A stretch of DNA of 64,000 nt from an uncultured Acidobacteriota bacterium (GTDB lineage: Bacteria; Actinomycetota; Acidimicrobiia; Acidimicrobiales; SHLQ01). Location: contig CAVTAI010000006.1 in assembly GCA_963732655.1 (NCBI GenBank), positions 34,306-98,305 on the forward strand. Reading direction: 5' to 3'. The position numbers were made by a program, and so were the translations under genes. How positions within the stretch are numbered: position 1 is the stretch's first letter; each line of letters begins with the position of its first letter. This document shows positions 4,113-61,834 of the stretch, piece after piece. The notes below the pieces were generated by a model. It was given only the letters and a program-made list of their open reading frames with translations. It did not search any database and was not told the DNA's origin.

Positions 4113-5696
4113 ATGTACCTGGGCGACCACGCACGGCTGACCCCGGAACGCACTGCGGTCACCATGTGGCCGTCACGCTCCTCGGTGACCTTCGGCGAGC
4201 TCTACGAGCGGTCGACGAAGCTCGGCAACCTGTTCCGAGCGGCCGGGCTGGTCGAGGGCGACCACATCGCCGTCTTCGCCTACAACCACGTGCGGTACTA
4301 CGAGGTGGCGTGGGCGGCCCTGAACGCCGGGCTGTACCTCACCCCGGTCAACGCCCACTCCTCGAGAGACGAGGCCGCCTACATCGTCGCCGATTGCGGC
4401 GCGCAGGTCCTCGTCGTCGCCGACTCGACGGCCGCCGTGGCCGAGGACATCGTCGCCGAGATGCCAGCCGTGCGGATCCGGCTGACGATGGATGCCACCC
4501 AGGGCAGCTTCCAGGCGATCGACGACGCGGCCGGGGGCATGCCCTCCGACCCCACCGTACCCGAGCGACGGGGCACGTACATGATGTATAGCTCCGGTAC
4601 CACCGGTCGGCCCAAGGGCATCAAACCACCGCTCCCCGACGCGGCGGCCTCGATCGGCGATGCCGTGCTCAACCAGGGCGCCCAGCGGCAATTCGGTCTC
4701 GACGAGAACGGCGTCTACCTCTCGCCGGCGCCGCTCCACCACGCCGCGCCGTTGCGGACATCCGTCGTGGCCACCGAGCTCGGTGCCCATGTGGTCTGCA
4801 TGGAACGGTTCGATCCCGAACAGGCGCTGGCGGCGATCGAGAGCGCGCGGGTGACCTGCTCGCAGTGGGTGCCGACCATGTTCGTGCGGCTCCTCAAGCT
4901 CGACCCCGAGGTGCGCGGGCGCTACGACCTGTCGAGCATGCGCCGGGTCGTTCACGCCGCCGCACCGTGCCCCATCTGGGTCAAGGAGCAGATGATCGAG
5001 TGGTGGGGCCCGATCATCTCGGAGTACTACGCCGGCAGCGAGAACATCGGGAACACGTCGATCGAAAGCGACGAGTGGCTCGCCCACAAGGGATCGGTCG
5101 GCCGATCGGTCTACGGCGTCATCCACATCTGCGACGATGCGGGTCACGAGCTGGCCGCCCGTCAGGATGGCCTCGTCTACTTCGACGCCCCGCTCACCAC
5201 CTTCGAGTACCACGGCGACCCAGCCAAGACCGCCGGCATGTATCACCCCACCCAGCCGTGGCGCACGCTCGGAGACATCGGCCACCTCGACGGCGACGGC
5301 TACCTCTACCTCTCCGACCGGGCCACGTTCATGATCATCTCGGGCGGCGCCAACGTCTACCCACAAGAGATCGAAGCGGTGATCCTGGCCCACCCCGGCG
5401 TGGTCGACGCCGCCGTCTTCGGCATCCCCCACCCCGACCTCGGCGAGGTGCCGCTGGCGGTCGTCCAACCGACCGATGGCGCTGTCCTCGCTGAACCCGC
5501 CGCCGCCGAGGCTCTGGCGGGCGACCTCCGGGCTCTGTGCACGGAGAAGCTGGCCCGCTACAAGATCCCCATCCGCTTCGAGTTCCGCGAGGCCCTGCCC
5601 CGCGGCGAGGACGGCAAGCTCCGCAAGAAACCACTTCGTGACGAGTACTGGGGCGACGACGGCTACTGGGGCGAGGGCTCCAAGATCATCGCCTGA
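4113..5696 (+). CDS. acyl-CoA synthetase / AMP-dependent ligase
   Basis: AMP-binding motif YSSGTTGRPKGI, GDIGHLDGDGYLYLSDR, C-terminal GKLRKK. Confidence 0.9.
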   Translation: MYLGDHARLTPERTAVTMWPSRSSVTFGELYERSTKLGNLFRAAGLVEGDHIAVFAYNHVRYYEVAWAALNAGLYLTPVNAHSSRDEAAYIVADCGAQVLVVADSTAAVAEDIVAEMPAVRIRLTMDATQGSFQAIDDAAGGMPSDPTVPERRGTYMMYSSGTTGRPKGIKPPLPDAAASIGDAVLNQGAQRQFGLDENGVYLSPAPLHHAAPLRTSVVATELGAHVVCMERFDPEQALAAIESARVTCSQWVPTMFVRLLKLDPEVRGRYDLSSMRRVVHAAAPCPIWVKEQMIEWWGPIISEYYAGSENIGNTSIESDEWLAHKGSVGRSVYGVIHICDDAGHELAARQDGLVYFDAPLTTFEYHGDPAKTAGMYHPTQPWRTLGDIGHLDGDGYLYLSDRATFMIISGGANVYPQEIEAVILAHPGVVDAAVFGIPHPDLGEVPLAVVQPTDGAVLAEPAAAEALAGDLRALCTEKLARYKIPIRFEFREALPRGEDGKLRKKPLRDEYWGDDGYWGEGSKIIA

Positions 5697-7787: not shown

Positions 7788-9479
7788 TCAGTCGCGGGGG
7801 TGGCGGCCGCTGAGGAAGTCGATCGAGCGGGTCACCGCGGAAGCGACGAAACGTTCGAGCTTGGGACTGGTGAGGAAGCGTGACGTGGCGTCGAGCGGGA
7901 TCGGCGAGCCCAGTCGGACGGCTTCTTCTGTGGCCGCCACGCTGGTCTTGACGGCGTGGGCCTGCACGATGAACGCGCTCGTTCCGTCGAGCAGCGACTC
8001 ATGCTGCAGGTCCTGGCCGTACTCGATCAGGTTTCCGGCCCGAGGAGTCACCTCGGCCCGGCGACCCACGGTGGTGTGCCACTCGTGGCGGCCCGTCCAG
8101 TTGGCCAGGAAGGCCGTCCACATCACCAGCCGGACCATGTCGGGAGTCGGGCCCTCACGGTCCACGAACCAGCGCGTTGCGTTGGCGTACGTGAGTCCGT
8201 GGGTGATGTCGAGCCAGCCGAAGTCGTCGTGGAAGTCTCGCTCTCCCGCGGGGTCATACCGGAGCAGCCGCTCACTCACCGCCACCACCACGGTGTCGAG
8301 CACGCCGTGCAAGCCGGCGCCGCCGGAGACGGCACGACCGACGGCGAGCGCGGCGGCCGTACGATCGGGGCCGAGCAGGGCGGTCAGCAGCGATCCGTCG
8401 TCGGACCACGCAGCTTCCGGCTCCGCCGCAGCGTCGGCCAGCTCGTCGAATCGGAGCTGGTCGAGCCCCCGCCGGAAGAGCGTGGCGTAGGGCAAGGTGT
8501 CCTCCCGGGTCCCGTAGACGATCCCGGGCACGAGGTGCGGAAGCACGGTGTCGGCTCGGTCCCACCCGATGTGCTCCAGCAGCTGGAACGCCTTCTGGGC
8601 GTAGATCGCCCCGTGGCCGTAGGAGAGCAGGTGGTCGCTCACCACGTCACCGAACCAAGGTCGGACATCCGCCGGACCATGTCCGGCCGCGAGCGCGGCC
8701 CGCAGCACGGCCTGAGCCGACTCCAACTGCTCGGCTTCCACCAGCCGTCGGAACTCAGCCCGAGGGTCGGCAGGAAGGTGCGTCAGCGCATCGGGTAACG
8801 CCCGAGGCGGCCGATCCCGTTCGGACTCGGCCACGCCGGCCAGCGCCTGGACGATCGGCAGCGCCCGCTCGTCGCCGCCGTAACGGTCCACCATGCCCAT
8901 GCAGTCGGAGAGCGAGGCGATGGAGTGGCCCCACCCGAACTCGGCCCGAGGTGCGCCGTGGGCCACCGCCTCCCAGATCAGCTCGCCGGGATTGGTGTCG
9001 GCCCGGAGCAGGCGGACGACGTCGCGCGAGATCTGCCCCACGTAGTCCTTCTCGATGCCGCGCCGGAGGCTGGCGAGGAGCCGGGGGCGGGCCTCGACGG
9101 GATCGGAGGCGCGGCGGCGGATCGTGACTGCTCCCTCGCTGGTCACGTCCACCTGGTGGACGGGGACGTCCTCCTCTCCGAGCAGGCAGTGGCCGTCGGT
9201 CACCCGGAACTTCCAGTTGTGCCAGGCACAGGTGATGACGTCGCCGTCGAGGTGGCCGGTGGTGAGCCCGTAACCCTCGTGGGGGCAGGCCTGATCGAGG
9301 GCGTGGACGCCGCCCGAGGCGCTGCGTACGAGACACATACGATGCCCGTCGACTCGGACAAGCTTCATGGACGACAGCGCCAGTTCGTCGATGTGGGCCA
9401 CGACCGTCGGGTGTTCGGCCTCGGCGGGGCGGGACTCGGCGGTCCGGCTCTCGGCGGTCCGGGCGGTGTTGATGCTCAT
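7788..9479 (-). CDS. Rieske [2Fe-2S] domain protein fused to a roughly 430-aa domain of unknown function
   Basis: CPHEG ... CAWHNW Rieske ligands fall within the first 110 aa or so. The remainder has no motif I recognise. Confidence 0.8.
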   Translation of the reverse strand: MSINTARTAESRTAESRPAEAEHPTVVAHIDELALSSMKLVRVDGHRMCLVRSASGGVHALDQACPHEGYGLTTGHLDGDVITCAWHNWKFRVTDGHCLLGEEDVPVHQVDVTSEGAVTIRRRASDPVEARPRLLASLRRGIEKDYVGQISRDVVRLLRADTNPGELIWEAVAHGAPRAEFGWGHSIASLSDCMGMVDRYGGDERALPIVQALAGVAESERDRPPRALPDALTHLPADPRAEFRRLVEAEQLESAQAVLRAALAAGHGPADVRPWFGDVVSDHLLSYGHGAIYAQKAFQLLEHIGWDRADTVLPHLVPGIVYGTREDTLPYATLFRRGLDQLRFDELADAAAEPEAAWSDDGSLLTALLGPDRTAAALAVGRAVSGGAGLHGVLDTVVVAVSERLLRYDPAGERDFHDDFGWLDITHGLTYANATRWFVDREGPTPDMVRLVMWTAFLANWTGRHEWHTTVGRRAEVTPRAGNLIEYGQDLQHESLLDGTSAFIVQAHAVKTSVAATEEAVRLGSPIPLDATSRFLTSPKLERFVASAVTRSIDFLSGRHPRD

Positions 9480-11270: not shown

Positions 11271-12030
11271 ATGGACCTCGGGCTCACCGGGAAGAAAGCC
11301 CTCATCACCGGCTCCACGAAAGGCATCGGCCGAGCCATCGCCGAGGCCCTCCTCGATGAAGGGCGCGTCGGTCGCCATCTGCGCCCGTGACGCCGAGGGC
11401 GTCGCCCAGGCCGTCGAGGAGCTCTCGAGCCGGGGCACCGTGTGGGGGGCGGCCGTCGACGCCGGCGACGAGGCGTCGCTCCGCGGCTTCATCGCCGACG
11501 CCATCGAAGAGCTCGGCGGCCTCGACATCTACGTCCACAACACCAGCGGGAAGCCGGCCAAGTCGCTCGAGGCATGGGGGAACAACTTCACCATCGACCT
11601 GATGGCCCTCATCGTCGGAGCGGAAGCCAGCGCCGATGCGTTGGCGGCCGATGGCGGCGGCGCCCTGGTGAGCATCGGCACCTCGGCCGTCGGCGAGCAC
11701 TTCGCCAGTGGTTCGAACAGCTACACCGCTTTCAAGGCCGCGGTGACCAACTGGACGCTCGGCCAGGCCCAGGTCCTGGGCTCCCGCGGCGTGCGGTGCA
11801 ACGTCGTCTCGCCCGGTCCCATCTGGGTCGACGGCGGCGACTGGAACCGCATCAAGGATGGCCGCGCCGAGATGTTCGCGGCGACCGAGGCCGGCCACCC
11901 CATGGGCCACATCGGCGATGTCGGCGATGTCGCCCGGGCCGTGGCGTTCGTCGTCTCCCCGGCGGCCAAACACATCAACGGCGTGAACCTGACGGTCGAC
12001 GGCGGGTTCATGAAGCGCGTTGATTTCTGA
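11271..12030 (+). pseudogene. SDR family oxidoreductase, frameshifted near 11361-11364
   Basis: MDLGLTGKKALITGSTKGIGRAIAEALLDEG lies in the frame of ORF 11115..11390. ASVAICARD ... YTAFK ... PGPI continues in the frame of ORF 11230..12030. The switch is at a GGG run. GGGAGA precedes ATG 11271. Confidence 0.8.
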
Positions 12031-12107
12031 GCCGGCGGTGACTTCTGAGCCGGCGGAGCTGGCGGTGATTTCTGAGCCGGCGGAGCCGGCGGTGACTTCT
12101 GAGCCGG
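12022..12107. repeat. four copies of GAyTTCTGAGCCGG spaced 18, 27 and 27 bp apart
   Basis: Copy 1 contains the SDR stop (gat ttc TGA, 12028-12030). TCTGAGCCGG recurs at 12026, 12044, 12071 and 12098, always in the same frame. Confidence 0.85.
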
Positions 12108-15945: not shown

Positions 15946-17380
15946 CGTGCTCATGCCCAAACTCGGGCTCACGATGCAGGAAGGCCGGATCATCGAGTGG
16001 CTCGTCCCGGACGGCGCACTCGTCACCGCCGACGACGAGATCCTGCTGATCGAGACCGACAAGACGGAGACGGCGGTGGGCTCCCCGGGCGCCGGTCGGC
16101 TCCATCAGATCGGCCAGCCCGGCCAGACGTTCGACTGTGGCCTGCTGATCGCCCTGCTCCTCGCCGAAGGGGAGGATACCCCTCCGGCGGCACCACTGAC
16201 CGCCGGCGCCCCTCCGGCGGCACCACTCGCCGCCGACGCCCCTCCGGCGGCACCACTCGCCGCCGACGCCCCTCCGGCGGCACCGGCGCAGGTCGGCGGG
16301 CGCCTGTTCGTGTCCCCCAACGCTCGCCGGGTCGCGGCCGTATACGGCCTTCCCCTCGCCACCGTCCGCGGCACCGGGCCCGGCGGTCGCATCGTGTCGG
16401 AGGACGTCGAGGCCGTTCTCGCCGCGCCGCGTCCCGCTCCACCGGTACCTTCTCCTGGCAGGCCGGGCGTCGGGTCGTTCGTGGTCGCGACCGCGGCGGC
16501 CCGCCAGCTCGCCGACCTGCTCGGCATCGACCTCTCGCTCGTGCCCGCCGATCCACTCGAGCGACGGGTCACGCGCGATGCCGTCGCCGTCTATGTCCGC
16601 GGCCTCCTTCACGCGCCCACGGAGCGGCCCGCCACCGCGCTCCCGTCCGCCGGTTCGGGCCGCCGGCCGGCCCCCATCGAGATTCCCTTGCTGCAGTCCC
16701 CTACCGAGGTCCGGCCGTTATCGGGCATGCGAGGCACCATCGCCCGGCGTATGCACGCCTCATTGTTGGACTCCGCCCAACTCACGCTGACGATGGACGC
16801 CGACCTCACCGCCGTGCTGGCCGACCGCGCCGAGCGGGGCCGCGGCGCCGAGTCGAATCCGGTTCCATCGATCACCGACTACGTGGTGGCCGCCACCGCC
16901 CGGGCCCTCCTCAGGCATCCGCTCATGAACGCTCAACTCACCGCCGACGGCATCGCCCTGCTCCCCGAAGTGCACGTCGGGCTGGCCGTGGCCCTCGACG
17001 GCGGCCTGATCGTTCCCGTGATCCGCGACGCCGCGGAGCGTTCGCTCGCAGAGCTGTCGGCCGAGGCCCGCCGCGTGGCCGGCGCAGCCCGTTCCAACTC
17101 CCTCGAGCTCGCCGACCTGGAGGGCGGGACGTTCGCCGTCAGTGCCCTCGGCACCCTCGGGGTCGACACCTTCACGCCGGTGATCAACCCCCCCAACGTC
17201 GGCATCTTGGGAATCGGCCGCCGGCGCGACGACGTGGCATTGGTCGACGGTGTCGTGGTCGCCGTGCCCCGACTCACCCTCAGCCTGACGTGGGACCACC
17301 GGGTCCTCGACGGCGTTCCCGCCGCCGAGTTCTGCCGCTCGATCGTGGCGCTGCTCGCCGAGCCCGAGCGGCTCGACTGA
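15935..17380 (+). CDS. dihydrolipoamide acyltransferase (E2) component
   Basis: Lipoyl-lysine context IETDKT, peripheral subunit-binding segment VSPNARRVAAVYGLPL, catalytic DHRVLDG. Confidence 0.9.
   Translation: MPVDVLMPKLGLTMQEGRIIEWLVPDGALVTADDEILLIETDKTETAVGSPGAGRLHQIGQPGQTFDCGLLIALLLAEGEDTPPAAPLTAGAPPAAPLAADAPPAAPLAADAPPAAPAQVGGRLFVSPNARRVAAVYGLPLATVRGTGPGGRIVSEDVEAVLAAPRPAPPVPSPGRPGVGSFVVATAAARQLADLLGIDLSLVPADPLERRVTRDAVAVYVRGLLHAPTERPATALPSAGSGRRPAPIEIPLLQSPTEVRPLSGMRGTIARRMHASLLDSAQLTLTMDADLTAVLADRAERGRGAESNPVPSITDYVVAATARALLRHPLMNAQLTADGIALLPEVHVGLAVALDGGLIVPVIRDAAERSLAELSAEARRVAGAARSNSLELADLEGGTFAVSALGTLGVDTFTPVINPPNVGILGIGRRRDDVALVDGVVVAVPRLTLSLTWDHRVLDGVPAAEFCRSIVALLAEPERLD
16181..16288 (+). 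repeat. 30-bp in-frame tandem repeat (about 3.6 copies) encoding the PPAAPL(T/A)A(G/D)A linker in E2
   Basis: cctccggcggcaccact(c/g)(g/a)ccgcc(g/g)(a/g)cgcc is repeated. Copies 2 and 3 are identical. Confidence 0.85.
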
Positions 17381-34075: not shown

Positions 34076-34852
34076 ATGGAGCTCGAAGGCAGGGTGGCCG
34101 TCATCACCGGCGGCACCCGAGGTATCGGCCGGGCCGTCGCCGAGGCCTTCCTCGCCGAAGGGGCGCGGGTCGTCATCAACGGTCGAAGCCCCGAGAAGGG
34201 GGCCGCCACCCTCGCCGAGATCGGCGCGGGTGACCGTCTCCACTACATCCAGGGTGACGCCATCGTGCAGTCCGAGGTCGACGCTGTCATCGACGGTGCG
34301 GTCGAGCACTTCGGTCGCATCGACATCCTCATGGCCAACGCCGGTGGCGGCGACAACTATGCGCCGATCGTCGACCTCACCGATGAGGCCATGGACTTCG
34401 CCATGAAGGTCAATTTCTGGCACACCTTCTGGGCCATACGCCGGGCGTTGAAATACATGATTCCCCAGGAGTGGGGCCGCATCATCACCATGTCGTCGGT
34501 CGAAGGGAAGTACGGCAAACCGGTGATCTCGCCGTACGTGGCCGCCAAACACGCCATCAACGGACTCACGAAGTCGTGCGCCCAAGAGGTCGGCACCATG
34601 GGCATCACCGTCAACGCGGTCTGCCCGGGCGCCATCGAGACCGACATGATGAAAGAGGCCGGACCCGGCGCCGCCGAAGCCGCCGGCATGACCTACGAGG
34701 CCTTCCTCGACATGTTCGCCAGCGAGACGGCGCGCAAGAAGCTCAACACCGTCGAGGACGTCGCCCAGGTGTGCGTGCTGCTGGCCTCCGAGCTCGGCGG
34801 CGGCATCAGCGGGGCGCAGATCTCGATCGACGGCGGCACCGCCGCCTACTGA
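34076..34852 (+). CDS. SDR family oxidoreductase (3-hydroxyacyl / 3-oxoacyl reductase-like)
   Basis: TGGTRGIGRAV, YVAAKHAINGLTK, NAVCPG. Confidence 0.9.
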   Translation: MELEGRVAVITGGTRGIGRAVAEAFLAEGARVVINGRSPEKGAATLAEIGAGDRLHYIQGDAIVQSEVDAVIDGAVEHFGRIDILMANAGGGDNYAPIVDLTDEAMDFAMKVNFWHTFWAIRRALKYMIPQEWGRIITMSSVEGKYGKPVISPYVAAKHAINGLTKSCAQEVGTMGITVNAVCPGAIETDMMKEAGPGAAEAAGMTYEAFLDMFASETARKKLNTVEDVAQVCVLLASELGGGISGAQISIDGGTAAY

Positions 34853-49358: not shown

Positions 49359-49880
49359 TCACACCTGCGACGTGCTGCGCCCGGCCGGGGAGTTGGCGAA
49401 CATGGCCTCGCTGTCGAAACCGATGCGGGCATCCGGCACGACCTCGATGACGACGCGGCCCGGCGAATCGAGGTGGTGGACGAACGCCGCCTGCTTCTCC
49501 GCGCTGTCCGGCCGGACGCGCGCCGCCAAGGCCTGGTAGAACCACGCCTTGGTGTCATCGTCGTCGTGGACGGTCGCCGTGCCCTTGTAGGTGACGGCCT
49601 GACTGATGCCGATGTCGGTCCCCCGACTCGTGATGGCCACGGCGACCCGGGGCCGGGCCATGATCGCCGGCACCCGCTTACGGCGCTTCGTACAGGTGAG
49701 CCAGAACCGATCGTCGCGCGGGACGAAGTTCATGATCACCCCGACCGGATCGCCGGTGGCGGTGGTCCACATGAAGGTGCACTCGGTCTGTTTGTCGAGG
49801 AGGACCTGCTCGCGCCCGTCGTCGAGCGTGAAGATCGAGACATCTTCGTAGGAGTCCACGTAGTCAGCGTCGTCAGCCAT
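49359..49880 (-). CDS. pyridoxamine 5-phosphate oxidase-like (flavin/F420-binding split-barrel) protein
   Basis: Size and beta-barrel-like pattern. GAGAGG lies 8 nt upstream of the ATG. Confidence 0.75.
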   Translation of the reverse strand: MADDADYVDSYEDVSIFTLDDGREQVLLDKQTECTFMWTTATGDPVGVIMNFVPRDDRFWLTCTKRRKRVPAIMARPRVAVAITSRGTDIGISQAVTYKGTATVHDDDDTKAWFYQALAARVRPDSAEKQAAFVHHLDSPGRVVIEVVPDARIGFDSEAMFANSPAGRSTSQV

Positions 49881-49888
49881 GTTCCCAG

Positions 49889-49951
49889 CCTCTCAATGTC
49901 CCTGTCCTCTCAATGTCCCTGTCCTCTCAAGGTCCAAGCCTCTCAACTTCC
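49889..49951. repeat. 17-bp tandem array, four units (two identical, two diverged); minus-strand core TTGAGAGG
   Basis: cctctcaatgtccctgt twice (49889-49905 and 49906-49922), then cctctcaaggtccaag, then cctctcaacttcc. The array fills the gap between the SDR stop and the PPOX start. Confidence 0.85.
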
Positions 49952-50690
49952 CAACATCCCGCCATCGACGGCGAGGGCATGGCCGGTGGTAAACGACGCT
50001 GCGTACGAGCACAACCACAAGGCCGCGGCGGCGATCTCGTCGGGCCTACCGAACCGGCCCAGCTTCGACAACCGGCCGGCGGTCTCCTCGGCGTCTCGAC
50101 CGCGCCGGCACCATGGCGTTGCGCAACATCGGCGTGTCGATGGCGCCCGGGCAGATGGCGTTGACCCGGATGCCGTGGGTTCCGTAGTCGAGCGCAGCCG
50201 ACCGAGTGAGCCCGAGCACGGCGTGTTTGCTCGCGGTGTACGCGGGCTGGTTTCCCTGGGGTCGGAACGAGTTCGTCGAGGCGATGTTGACGATGGACCC
50301 TCCCCCGCCGGTAAGCATGGCGGAGATCTCGTGCTTCATGCACAAGAACACCGACCGGGCGTTGACCGCCATCATCCGCTCGTAGTCGGCTTCCTCACAC
50401 TCGTGGAGCGGCACCATCTCGAACTCGATGGCGGCCGCGTTGACCGCGGCGTCCAGCCGACCGAACCGGTCGAGGGCGGTACCCACGATGCGCTCCACGT
50501 CGGCGTTCACCGACACGTCGCCGGCCACGCCCACGACATCGGCGCCGAGTCCGGCCAGTACTTCGGCGTCGAGGTCCGACGCCACCACCCGGGCACCGGC
50601 ATCGACGAAGGCCGCCACGATCGCCCGCCCCATCCCCCCGGTGGCCCCGGTAACGATCGTCACCCGGCCCTCCATCGCTCCATCGCTCAT
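49943..50690 (-). pseudogene. SDR family oxidoreductase, frameshifted near 50100-50105
   Basis: [11 protein letters not shown] ... [12 protein letters not shown] ... [13 protein letters not shown] lies in ORF 50046..50915. The canonical C-terminus [52 protein letters not shown] lies in a third frame ending at 49943. The switch is in a gcgcg run. Confidence 0.8.
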
Positions 50691-50773
50691 CGCGGCACGT
50701 CCTTCCACGCCTTGTCTCCGCTCACGGGTCGGCCAACAAGGCTCATCGCGGCACGTCCTTCCACGCCTTGTCT
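50685..50773. repeat. 33-bp perfect direct repeat (50685-50717 and 50741-50773), the core of a 56-bp junction duplication
   Basis: gctcatcgcggcacgtccttccacgccttgtct occurs twice. Copy 2 is the 3-prime end of the ACAD gene. Copy 1 abuts the SDR start. Confidence 0.9.
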
Positions 50774-52005
50774 TTGTCCACTCTCGGTTCACCGGGGAGG
50801 CCGAGGACCCGTTCGGCCATGATGTTGCGCTGCACCTCATCGGAGCCGCCGGCGATGCGGTAGCCGGGTGCCCCGGTGACGTGCTCGACCCACTCGAACG
50901 TGCCCCACTCACCACTGTCGGCGAGCAGGCGCGGTCCGAGGATGTCCCCCACCACGTCGGTGATGAGCCGCATGCCCTCGGTCCACATGAGTTTGCCGAT
51001 CGAGCCTTCGGGACCGGGTTGGGCGCCGGCCTGGCGCATGTCGGCCGTCCGCCGGTTCACGAAGCTCTGGAGCCGCGTGGAGGTGTAGACCTGCATGAGG
51101 CGCTGCCGCATCACGGGATCGGCGGTGACACCGAGGTGCTGGGCCAGCGCGATCACGTGCGGCCAGGCCCCACCCGCCCGCGCCGTGCCCGAGCCGCTCT
51201 TGTCGCGCTCGAAGCTGAGCGTGGTCAATGCCACGTTCCAGCCGTCGCCCACCTCCCCCAACCGGAGCGCGTCGGGGAAGCGAGCGTCGGTGAAGAACAC
51301 CTCGTTGAACGACGCCCCGCCACTCATCTGCTTGATGGGTCGGATCTCGACGCCGGGGGCATCCATCGGGACGAGGAAGGCGGTGAGCCCTCGGTGCTTC
51401 ACCACGTTCGGATCCGAGCGAGCGATGAGCAGGCCCCACGGGGAGAACATGGCACCGGAGCTCCATGTCTTCTGGCCACTGATCACCCACTCGTCGCCGT
51501 CGCGCTCGGCCCGGCACGCCAATCCGGCGAGGTCGGAACCGGCGCCCGGTTCGGAGAACAGCTGGCAGCAGAGGAACTCGGCGCTGAGCAACGGAGCGAC
51601 GAACCGCTCCTTCTGCTCGGGGGTGCCGAACCGGTCGACCGTGGGTGAGATGAGCCCGGTGGTGACGCTGAAGGTCTCGTGCCGGCCGGGGGTCACGTAC
51701 TCGGATTCGAGTGCGGAGAAAGCGTAGGCGTGCTCCTTGCCGAGGCCCAGCCCACCGATCTCGGGGCGTGCGGTCACCGCATGGTAACCCCGGGTGGCCT
51801 TGAGCTGTTGCCAGGCCATGAGCCGCTGGAGGAGGCTCCACTCCTCGGCCCGATCGAGAGCGTGGAACACGGCGACGCTGAACGTGCCGTCGCCCCAGGC
51901 CACGTCGACGTTCTCGCCATCGGTGCTCGAACGGCGCTCAGCATGGTGATCCAGCCAGGTGCGCGCCTCGGCGGCGAACTCGTCGACGGTGGGGGGAGCG
52001 GCCAT
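50743..52005 (-). CDS. acyl-CoA dehydrogenase
   Basis: ACAD layout, with a C-terminal [12 protein letters not shown]-type motif. Confidence 0.9.
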
Positions 52006-52026: not shown

Positions 52027-53361
52027 TCAGCGGGCGGGGGTGAGCTCGAGGTCGAGGCGTTTGAGGCCTCGCAGCATGAAGCTCGGGTGGTACTCGTAGG
52101 AGTTGCTCTCCGCCAGCCGGAACGACGCCACACGGGCGGACAGCTCTTCGAGCGCGACTCGCGCCTCGAGCCGTGACAGGTTCGCGCCGACGCAGTAGTG
52201 GATGCCCTTGCCGAACGCCAGGTGGTTGACGAGGTTCGAGCGGTCGGGGTCGAACGTGTCCGGGTCGACGAAGTGGCGTTCGTCGCGGTTGGCGGACGTG
52301 TACATCAGCACGATGCGCCGCCCGGCCGGGATGGCGACGCCGCCGAGCTCGACATCGCGGGTGGTGATCCGCCACATGCCCTGGGTCGGGGTCGACAGGC
52401 GGAGCACCTCCTCGATGATCGGCTTGGCGAAGGACGGGTCGTGCCGGACCTGGTGCCACCGCTCCGGATGTCGGCCGAGCAGGAGCATCATCTCGGTGAG
52501 CAGCTTCGTGGTCGTCTCGTTGCCCGCGACCAGCAGCTGCGAGAGGATCGACTGCATCTCACTCATGGTGAGCGGCTCGTCCGGCAGATCAGGATCCTCG
52601 GCTGGGTCCGCGTTGGCCGTGTCGATCCCGGCCGTGTCGATCCGGGCGGTGACGAGCCGGGACAAGATGTCGTCGCCGGGCTCGGCGCGACGACGCTCGA
52701 GCTGCTCGGCGAAGAAGTGCTGCATCTCGATCTGGCCCATCTCGGCGGCCATGCGCTGGTCGGGAGTGAGCGACGCCCCGATGGGCGCGACGTTGTCATC
52801 GCTCCAGCGTTTGAAGTCGGCCAGGCGATCATCGGGGACCGCCAGCGCCTTGGCGATGGTCTCCACCGGGAGCGGTACGGCGAACTCGGCGACGAACTCG
52901 ATGCCCCCGTTGCCGATCCACGAGTCGATCAATCGGCGGGTGATGGCCCGGATGGCCGGTTCGAGGTCGGTGATCGACCGGGGGGTGAAGGCTTTGGAGA
53001 CGAGCTTGCGGTACCGGGTCTGTTCGGGCGGATCGGCACTCAACATGGTCGGAACGGCTGGCCACCCGCCGTGGTCCTCACGCAGCTGCCGGAGCCGGGC
53101 GGCGAGCTCGGGATCGGCCGGCATGCCGGCGCTGCCGAACTTCGACGAGTAGGTCGAGGGATCCCGAAGGACCTCCAGCACGAGGTCGTGCGTGGTGACC
53201 AGCCACACCGGCATGCCGAGGGCGTCGGTGGCGTAGACGGGTGCCCCCGATCGCATCGCCGCGTAGTAGGCGTGGGGCTGCTGCTGGATCTCGGCGTCGA
53301 ACAGGCCGAAGTCGGCCAGATCCACGAGATCGCGCCCGGCGACAAGACGTTCGCTGGTCAT
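52027..53361 (-). CDS. cytochrome P450
   Basis: AGNETT I-helix, EEVLRL, heme loop FGKGIHYCVGANLSR. Confidence 0.9.
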   Translation of the reverse strand: MTSERLVAGRDLVDLADFGLFDAEIQQQPHAYYAAMRSGAPVYATDALGMPVWLVTTHDLVLEVLRDPSTYSSKFGSAGMPADPELAARLRQLREDHGGWPAVPTMLSADPPEQTRYRKLVSKAFTPRSITDLEPAIRAITRRLIDSWIGNGGIEFVAEFAVPLPVETIAKALAVPDDRLADFKRWSDDNVAPIGASLTPDQRMAAEMGQIEMQHFFAEQLERRRAEPGDDILSRLVTARIDTAGIDTANADPAEDPDLPDEPLTMSEMQSILSQLLVAGNETTTKLLTEMMLLLGRHPERWHQVRHDPSFAKPIIEEVLRLSTPTQGMWRITTRDVELGGVAIPAGRRIVLMYTSANRDERHFVDPDTFDPDRSNLVNHLAFGKGIHYCVGANLSRLEARVALEELSARVASFRLAESNSYEYHPSFMLRGLKRLDLELTPAR

Positions 53362-61246: not shown

Positions 61247-61774
61247 TCAGCCCCCCGCCCGCTCGCCGAGCTCGCGGGCGGTCACCTGGGCCCGCTCGCC
61301 GAGCTCGCGGGCGGTCACCTGGGCCCGCTCGCCGAGCTCGCGGGCGGTGTCCATGATCGACCGGTCGCCTCTCTCCCATTGCACGTTGAGCGTGATCGCG
61401 CGGAGCCGCCAGCCGTCGGGCCGGCGCACCAAGGTGTCGACGTAAAACCCGCCGACGGTGAAGATCTTCTCGCCGAGCACATGGTCGGCCACCACGTACA
61501 TCTCGCAGACCGCCTGGTCGTCGTCGATGCGAACCCGGGGGTTGGTCATCGAGTGCTGCGACGCGTCGAGACCCTGGAACAGCGGAATGAGGTTCGCGAC
61601 CCAGTCGTCGGCCGACACGGTTGCGGCCGGACGGCCGTTCCACGACGAGAAGTCGACAAGCACGTCGGTGTCGAAGATCGCCCGGTAGCCCTCCCAGTCG
61701 CGCCGATCGACCCCCCAGGCGTACGAGTAGACCGTCTCGACGACGGCCAACCGGTCCTCGGCCGAACCCCTCAT
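61247..61774 (-). CDS. SnoaL/NTF2-like protein with a repeated C-terminal tail
   Basis: LAVVETVYSYAWGVDRRDW pattern. The tail is TARELGERAQV twice plus TARELGERAGG. Confidence 0.75.
   Translation of the reverse strand: MRGSAEDRLAVVETVYSYAWGVDRRDWEGYRAIFDTDVLVDFSSWNGRPAATVSADDWVANLIPLFQGLDASQHSMTNPRVRIDDDQAVCEMYVVADHVLGEKIFTVGGFYVDTLVRRPDGWRLRAITLNVQWERGDRSIMDTARELGERAQVTARELGERAQVTARELGERAGG
61257..61348 (-). repeat. 33-bp in-frame tandem repeat, 2.8 copies, at the 3-prime end of the SnoaL gene
   Basis: gcccgctcgccgagctcgcgggcggtcacctgg at 61257-61289 and 61290-61322, then a partial third copy. Confidence 0.9.
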
Positions 61775-61834
61775 CGCGACAGGCCTCTCATCGCAACAGG
61801 CCTCTCATCGCGACAAGCCTCTCATCGCGACAAG
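61768..61834 (-). repeat. 17-bp tandem array (4 units) forming three ATGA-chained 6-codon mini-ORFs
   Basis: Minus-strand unit ATGAGAGGCYTGTYGCG. Mini-ORFs at 61805-61825, 61788-61808 and 61771-61791. Confidence 0.9.

Follow-up and report, generated by a model that had tools for sequence, protein, structure and literature searches.

Tandem Repeat at the Stop/Start Junction of an Acyl-CoA Dehydrogenase and a Short-Chain Dehydrogenase Gene in an Uncultured Member of the Acidimicrobiia

Introduction

How can the end of one operon gene come to be repeated in front of the next, with a short open reading frame (ORF) fitted exactly between the stop codon of the first and the start codon of the second? 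The question arises from a stretch of 64,000 nucleotides (the window; positions 34,306 to 98,305 of contig CAVTAI010000006.1, assembly GCA_963732655.1) from an uncultured, Ilumatobacteraceae-like bacterium of the Acidimicrobiia, in which an acyl-CoA dehydrogenase (ACAD) gene is followed on the minus strand by a short-chain dehydrogenase (SDR) gene, with a mini-ORF of 19 codons between them. Comparison with related genomes leads us to describe the junction as a two-copy minisatellite with a unit of about 56 bp. Our preferred explanation, to which we assign a probability of roughly 0.55, is that the repeat was born by slippage and has been tolerated because the translational coupling of the two genes was kept. 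The minisatellite itself is genuine and conserved, and belongs to a kind known in outline before; its structure, age, and concerted evolution are documented below by the comparison of sequences.

The ACAD-SDR Junction

An exact direct repeat of 33 nt, AGACAAGGCGTGGAAGGACGTGCCGCGATGAGC on the minus strand, is found at 50741-50773 and again at 50685-50717, the two copies lying 56 bp apart from start to start. Reading of the minus strand and a repeat finder gave the same result, and the coordinates listed in the preliminary description of this locus, which had been made from the letters alone, proved right throughout. No third copy of the 33-mer occurs in the 64-kb window, even with up to three mismatches allowed, and none of 100 dinucleotide shuffles contained a 33-nt repeat. 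The surrounding genes are arranged in the order P450-ACAD-SDR-PNPOx, all on one strand.

Copy 1 (50741-50773) comprises the last ten codons of the ACAD gene (50743-52005; 420 aa in the ORF list), its TGA, and two further nucleotides. On the minus strand the gene ends GAC AAA GAC AAG GCG TGG AAG GAC GTG CCG CGA TGA. This TGA (50745-50743) is overlapped by an ATG (50746-50744), forming the first ATGA (50743-50746) and opening the mini-ORF (50687-50746; 19 codons and a stop), while the TGA of the mini-ORF (50689-50687) is in turn overlapped by the ATG (50690-50688) of the SDR gene, forming the second ATGA (50687-50690) within copy 2 (50685-50717). A Shine-Dalgarno (SD)-like motif, GGAAGGA, coincides with the ACAD codons for W-K-D at 50756-50762, 9 nt 5′ of the mini-ORF ATG, and recurs in copy 2 at 50700-50706. 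Copy 2 hence gives the SDR gene the identical 31 upstream nucleotides, SD-like motif, and ATGA that copy 1 gives the mini-ORF. The description of the mini-ORF as linked by ATGA at both ends and finishing like the ACAD is correct, and its first two codons, ATGAGC, are those of the SDR gene.

The ACAD of the window carries the Pfam domains PF02771, PF02770, and PF00441, precomputed for an identical protein (P0001). More than 100 homologs, including orthologs from many Acidimicrobiia, share its C-terminus, EPRVDKDxAWKDVPR, and because of this wide conservation copy 1 is the original gene end and copy 2 the derived one. The 33-mers are separated by a spacer of 23 nt, CTTGTTGGCCGACCCGTGAGCGG (50718-50740, minus strand), the 3′ half of which, CGACCCGTGAGC, is homologous to the spacer core of the relatives discussed below. 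To the left of the two 33-mers, 9 of 23 nt are identical in register, in agreement with the divergence previously noted outside the identical segment, and local nucleotide alignment of the flanks of the 33-mer scored no better than shuffles; the homology of this diverged left part becomes credible only via comparison with relatives.

Related Genomes

The closer ACADs in a large protein database are P0002, P0003, and P0004, with 93%, 87%, and 79% identity, encoded on contigs referred to here as L161, L162, and L163. These represent species-level relatives rather than strains. No exact copy of the window ACAD was found on other contigs, and the best matches over the ACAD did not exceed 70% identity among GTDB species representatives or 65% among JGI metagenome contigs.

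L161 is collinear with the window from 62106 to 41032 (21 kb) at 80-95% nucleotide identity, and possesses a tandem repeat at the same ACAD-SDR junction. There CGATGACCGGACCAAGTCGACCGTGAACAC, AGACCGGGCCTGGAAAGACGTGCCGCGGTGACCGGACCAAGTCGACCCGTGAAC, and GAGGAGTTTTCACCATGACC follow one another, the last leading into the SDR gene, and Tandem Repeats Finder (TRF) assigns a period of 55 and 2.1 copies. L162 has two units of 59 bp at this junction, and the contig ends inside a third (5360-5471; TRF period 59, 1.9 copies, 98% match). The L163 contig ends 16 nt beyond the ACAD stop, and its junction is not covered. In both L161 and L162 the repeat unit consists of the ACAD end, the stop codon, and about 25 nt of spacer, the spacer itself being repeated (S1 and S2 are nearly identical), and the window spacer has the core CGACCCGTGA(G/A)C in common with both. 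The number of units is about 1.6 in the window, about 2.4 in L161, and at least 2.3 in L162. In L161 codon 2 of the mini-ORF and of the SDR gene has ACC as its counterpart, in the two copies as well as in the SDR gene itself.

These comparisons revise the preliminary description in several respects. The duplication had been taken to be recent and private to this genome, and the spacer to be derived there; two-copy repeats of 55 and 59 bp stand at the same junction in L161 and L162, and the spacer is ancestral to the clade since it belongs to the repeated unit in both. An assembly artefact was rejected, since the independent assemblies of two relatives show a like repeat in the corresponding position and all three assemblies agree. 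The single-copy ATGA junction that was to be sought across relatives was not found between ACAD and SDR in any genome examined. A search from the SDR side recovered orthologs with 74-80% identity, only behind a different upstream gene and with single-copy overlaps of the NTGA type (L164-L166), as in L164, where the SDR gene stands behind a plain single GTGA junction. In these three contigs (SDR starts at 1659, 949, and 1698 in L164, L165, and L166) the SDR-PNPOx-glyoxalase-permease block is kept and is preceded by a gene for an FAD-dependent oxidoreductase, not by P450-ACAD. With a different gene before the SDR in L164-L166, synteny breaks exactly where the junction is repeated.

Age and Mode of Evolution

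Between the two 33-nt copies there are no differences within the window, four within L161, and four within L162, compared with five to nine in every comparison between genomes. Copies within a genome are thus closer to each other than to those of other genomes, which points to concerted evolution. At the rate of divergence seen in the relatives, the probability of 0 differences in 33 positions is approximately 0.014. The exact 33 nt of the window therefore look like a recent gene-conversion tract laid over an old, diverged repeat, and such a tract would explain why the identity ends abruptly at the borders of the 33-mer.

Several features speak to the age of the repeat itself. In all three genomes copy 2 has departed, over its left part, from the genome's own ACAD gene (4/12, 2/12, and more differences), and the unit keeps one phase throughout. 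The second copies in L161 and L162 have GACCGGGCCTGG in common, whereas their copy 1 sequences differ, and a derived GTGA in the spacer is common to the window and L161. The divergence of copy 2, the equal unit phase, and the shared derived states favor one ancestral duplication followed by homogenization. Relative to L161 the window is without the second spacer and the GAGGAG linker, so that the ATGA of copy 2 is the start of the SDR gene; a deletion between two ATGA(G/C)C motifs would yield this arrangement.

Reading-Frame Chains

In all three genomes the repeat can be read as a chain of ORFs joined by stop/start overlaps. The chain of the window passes from ACAD through ATGA to 19 codons and through ATGA to SDR. 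That of L161 runs from ACAD through ATGA to 7 codons, through GTGA to 12 codons, through a further GTGA to 14 codons, and through ATGA to SDR, and that of L162 from ACAD through GTGA to 20 codons and through GTGA on to the end of the contig, where it is intact so far. An SD-like motif (GGAAGGA or GAGAGG) is located 8-9 nt 5′ of every restart codon. The unit lengths are 56, 55, and 59 bp in the window, L161, and L162; those of 56 and 59 differ by 3 nt, and the frame is kept. Since 56 is 2 mod 3 and the frame is free of stops, the filler ORF that begins with the ATG on the ACAD stop is 19 codons long and finishes exactly on the SDR ATGA.

The junction was also examined for regulatory elements. 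RNA of the junction (181 nt) forms weaker folds than its shuffles do (z = +1.75), no Rfam match for the junction was obtained at E ≤ 1, and a consensus-level pattern scan of the junction revealed no promoter or terminator. A cis-regulatory RNA or a leader-peptide attenuator was rejected on these grounds, there being no Rfam family, no terminator, and folding weaker than that of shuffles.

Other Tandem Arrays

Junction minisatellites are recurrent in this lineage, with three or four arrays in 64 kb. The 61.8 kb array (61770-61832, minus strand; 3.7 units of 17 bp, ATGAGAGGCCTGTCGCG) leads from a thiolase-like to a SnoaL-like gene through three ATGA-linked ORFs of six codons (MRGLSR). Its unit carries GAGAGG 9 nt before the next ATG, and resembles the downstream gene at its start (MRG) and the upstream one at its end (LSR). 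The statement that the ACAD-SDR junction is a tandem duplication spanning the upstream stop, with an architecture matching that of the 61.8 kb array, is upheld. In L161 the corresponding junction has diverged to 18+17+17 nt (ATGA, TTGA, TTGA, ATGA) and is still chained, with ORFs of 12+6 codons.

The 49.9 kb array (49879-49954, minus strand; 4.5 units of 16/17 bp, TTGAGAGG) extends from the SDR stop to a PNPOx-like gene (ATG at 49880). Here TTG/TGA overlaps replace ATGA, the TTGA-linked ORFs are 17 and 7 codons in length, and the last of them stops 5 nt into the next gene. This array is lineage-specific, being absent from L161, which has at the same position a non-repetitive spacer of 34 nt spanned by one GTGA...ATGA ORF. 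Within the 64 kb, no 33-mer, spacer, or 17-mer was found beyond its own junction, and the three arrays share at most TGAGAGG.

Two distant Acidimicrobiales metagenome-assembled genomes provide further cases. In L023 (15853-15899) an array of 3.4 units of 14 bp contains two GTGA-linked ORFs of five codons, the units of which (VIAVS) open with the likeness of the downstream gene and close with that of the upstream one, an independent junction duplication. In L054 (minus strand, stop at 2687) a 15-bp unit extends the downstream protein in frame, with VSEDP followed by VSDDV.

The genome is generally rich in young tandem repeats. At 12017-12107 three additional copies of an SDR-like gene's end (GGDF*, TTCTGA) form units of 18/27 bp, a period of 0 mod 3; the stop is CTGA, hence there is no overlapping start, and the frame of the downstream gene runs uninterrupted across the array, each unit of which contains a GTG. 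A perfect in-frame repeat of 33 bp (2.8 copies, TARELGERAQV) at 61257-61348 forms the C-terminus of the SnoaL-like protein just before its stop; L161 has one copy fewer, and the repeat is consequently polymorphic in copy number between relatives. Further in-frame tandem repeats were observed at 52615-52661 (15 bp, 3.1 copies, in the P450 gene), 16179-16284 (30 bp, 3.5 copies), and 9416-9462 (15 bp, 3.2 copies).

The SDR Gene

The SDR gene occupies 49943-50690 on the minus strand. Its start, the ATG at 50690, is backed by homology, no gap being needed to align the N-terminus with the orthologous MTAGALDGKVAIVTG (L161) and MSERVLDGKVAVVTG (L165), and adh_short Pfam families are on record for the SDR proteins P0208 and P0121. 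The frame is broken in the window by one extra base near 50107 (50103-50117), where GCCATGGTGCCGG stands against GCCAT-GCACCGG in L161. As a result the last 54 residues, including the conserved true C-terminus AVDGGMLGS* (TGA at 49945-49943), are shifted to another frame, and the source gene caller reports a truncated product of 214 aa (P0208). The break is either that of a real pseudogene or an assembly indel.

Two smaller repeats were noted in this gene. An 8-bp repeat, CGATGAG/CGATGGAG/CGATGGAG (50670-50693, minus strand), spans SDR codons 1-8 and, together with the 56-bp repeat, produces four GCGATGRAG contexts in 80 nt; the N-terminus of the SDR is equally long in L161, so this periodicity arose via substitutions, not indels. 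An out-of-frame ATG in the same interval opens the reading frame MERWRAG*, which terminates at a GTGA, the GTG of this overlap being in frame with SDR. In L161 the SDR gene (11749-11785) has an extra in-frame repeat of 36 nt, GGGLAGGGGLAG, which is absent from the window at about 50297-50311.

Discussion

The following course of events would account for the junction. In the common ancestor of the window genome and its two closest relatives, the last 13-17 or so ACAD codons, the stop, and about 15-25 nt downstream would have been tandemly duplicated, presumably by replication slippage or unequal recombination. The copies would then have evolved in concert, a recent conversion tract making 33 nt identical in the window genome, where the ATGA of the second copy is the SDR start itself. 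Having ended ACAD, ribosomes would start again at the overlapping ATG, pass through the filler ORF to its stop, and there reinitiate on SDR, whereby the translational coupling of the operon would survive the insertion. Duplications that break this relay, and later indels in it, would be selected against, and the filler peptide itself would have no function. The coupling and the selective filter are what we infer from the anatomy of the junction, the persistence of the chain through divergence at two loci, and textbook termination-reinitiation at NTGA.

A number of observations weigh against this explanation. A 2-mod-3, stop-free duplication of an ATGA junction yields such a relay automatically, so that the chain is not independent evidence of selection. 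A census of periods covering 1.83 Mb, in which arrays duplicating the [A/G/T]TGA stop of a credible gene were considered with no bias to non-coding arrays, gave 3:2:4 for periods of 0, 1, and 2 mod 3, and the excess of 2 mod 3 is not significant. The emphasis first placed on 56 being 2 mod 3 is accordingly sound as the arithmetic condition for a frame leading from ATGA to ATGA, but it does not amount to a general rule. On inspection, L054 represents the outcome expected of a 0-mod-3 period and the two 1-mod-3 cases are not clear coupled junctions; the census cases fit a coupling-preserving filter, in numbers too small to carry it. Among 242 gapped co-directional gene pairs 23 chained junctions were observed against 17.3 expected, under a null that is weak in that the shuffles keep the gap length and end motifs, the crude gene finder having skipped the ACAD-SDR pairs; direct NTGA junctions among the surveyed gene pairs numbered 29. 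The repeat junction between ACAD and SDR is carried by only three genomes, and in the window the SDR is frameshifted, so that coupling to it may no longer matter in this genome. The first unit of L161 is 55 nt long and its chain survives only through the internal GTGA, a rescue which could be luck or a homopolymer error, the latter being suggested by a C missing from a run of C and by the naming of the contig, which suggests long reads. Finally, the SD-like GGAAGGA may be incidental, since W-K-D is conserved also in uncoupled orthologs.

Much of this would follow if the junction were a neutral variable-number tandem repeat (VNTR), a slippage product in which the relay is an arithmetic by-product and SDR is translated from its own SD-like site regardless. 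Such an account is possible, though we regard it as rather less probable than the preservation of coupling. A chain is the automatic consequence of such a unit length, the census is not significant and the chain survey is near its null, and the genome is full of recent tandem repeats of all kinds, perfect in-frame ones included, among which the 49.9 kb array is lineage-specific. Against it, the chains persist in three genomes and at two loci despite considerable divergence and changes of length (56/55/59; 17×3 versus 18+17+17), and none of the 1-mod-3 periods belonged to a clear coupled junction, in numbers too small to be decisive. If each lineage had instead acquired its own recent duplication at a slippage hotspot, rather than inheriting one old converted repeat, the copies within a genome would likewise be closer than those between genomes, and the differing copy content (about 1.6, about 2.4, and at least 2.3 units) would be expected. 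We consider this improbable in light of the left part of copy 2, already diverged from its own ACAD in every genome, the same unit phase in all three, the GACCGGGCCTGG common to L161 and L162, and the derived GTGA common to the window and L161.

The position of the synteny breakpoint, exactly at the 5′ junction of SDR as seen in L164-L166, might suggest that copy 2 is the leftover 3′ end of a deleted second ACAD paralog that once stood before SDR. This is contradicted by the repetition of the post-stop spacer in L161 and L162, in head-to-tail units recognized by TRF, since a remnant would not carry a copy of the spacer, and we give the idea hardly any credence. Equally little is given to the proposal of a cis-regulatory RNA or DNA element (attenuator, terminator, or protein-binding iteron) with an irrelevant ORF, or of an assembly artefact. 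Direct repeats can be binding sites, and the conserved spacer core CGACC(C)GTG[AG]AC is left unexplained; the folding weaker than shuffles, the lack of Rfam, terminator, and promoter matches in the junction, and the agreement of three assemblies all speak against it. A bolder view takes the stuttering junction to be a selected translational relay tunable by copy number, the length of the array setting the ratio of the downstream to the upstream enzyme. The NTGA junctions of this lineage would then repeatedly spawn tandem units, each equipped with an SD-like motif and a stop/start overlap, selection would keep the units in frame, and conversion would homogenize them. This we find doubtful; if true, elements of the type known as mycobacterial interspersed repetitive units (MIRUs) would originate de novo from a junction's own sequence, before their dispersal.

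Should the retention of coupling across the ACAD-SDR minisatellite be correct, tandem insertions can be accommodated at operon junctions with the coupling of translation intact, and the stoichiometry of the enzymes could be adjusted via copy number. Such a control point, situated outside the promoter, would be simple and evolvable. A neutral repeat would be an ordinary product of slippage in a genome rich in repeats. In practical terms, junction arrays probably break short-read assemblies, as L162 ends inside one, and may be longer than assembled. They confuse gene callers, giving rise to spurious short ORFs and wrong starts, and could act as VNTR markers for uncultured Acidimicrobiia populations.

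Comparison with Known Systems

The stop/start overlap of 4 nt, ATGA or GTGA, with termination-reinitiation is the commonest gene overlap in prokaryotic operons. The ACAD-SDR chains are like such coupled pairs in that every link consists of an NTGA overlap preceded at 8-9 nt by an SD-like motif, and in that the junction, by consensus-level tests, is without terminator, promoter, or strong RNA structure. They differ in that the overlap is iterated, with one or more non-functional filler ORFs between two real genes. With bacterial minisatellites, or VNTRs, the junction shares head-to-tail copies that are more similar within than between genomes, copy numbers that differ at several loci of the window, and a contig (L162) that breaks inside the array. 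Most VNTRs described are in-frame coding or plain intergenic repeats, whereas here the units straddle a stop and a start and thereby create reading frames.

MIRUs are tandem units of 53 and 77 bp, both lengths being 2 mod 3, in the intergenic regions of mycobacterial operons, and each contains a short ORF overlapping the neighboring stop and start codons, suggesting translational coupling. We take the architecture of the ACAD-SDR junction to be that of these elements, which were reportedly first described by Supply et al., in Mol Microbiol in 1997 and 2000, from the senX3-regX3 intergenic region. The likeness extends to the tandem units of 56, 55, and 59 bp between co-directional operon genes (about 40-100 bp in MIRUs), to the short ORF with its start and stop on the neighbors' stop and start, traced in the window, L161, and L162, and to the variation in copy number and sequence between related genomes, here at the level of species. 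In contrast, MIRUs form a dispersed family with one consensus at tens of Mycobacterium loci, while here each array derives from its own junction; the host, moreover, is an uncultured Acidimicrobiia lineage of another actinobacterial class, and the two are likened by architecture, not by unit sequence. With these differences, dispersal above all, the junction repeat appears to resemble MIRUs rather than to represent an element of a new type. That an architecture like that of MIRUs occurs in another class of actinobacteria, in units visibly taken from the flanking genes, bears on the origin of such repeat families.

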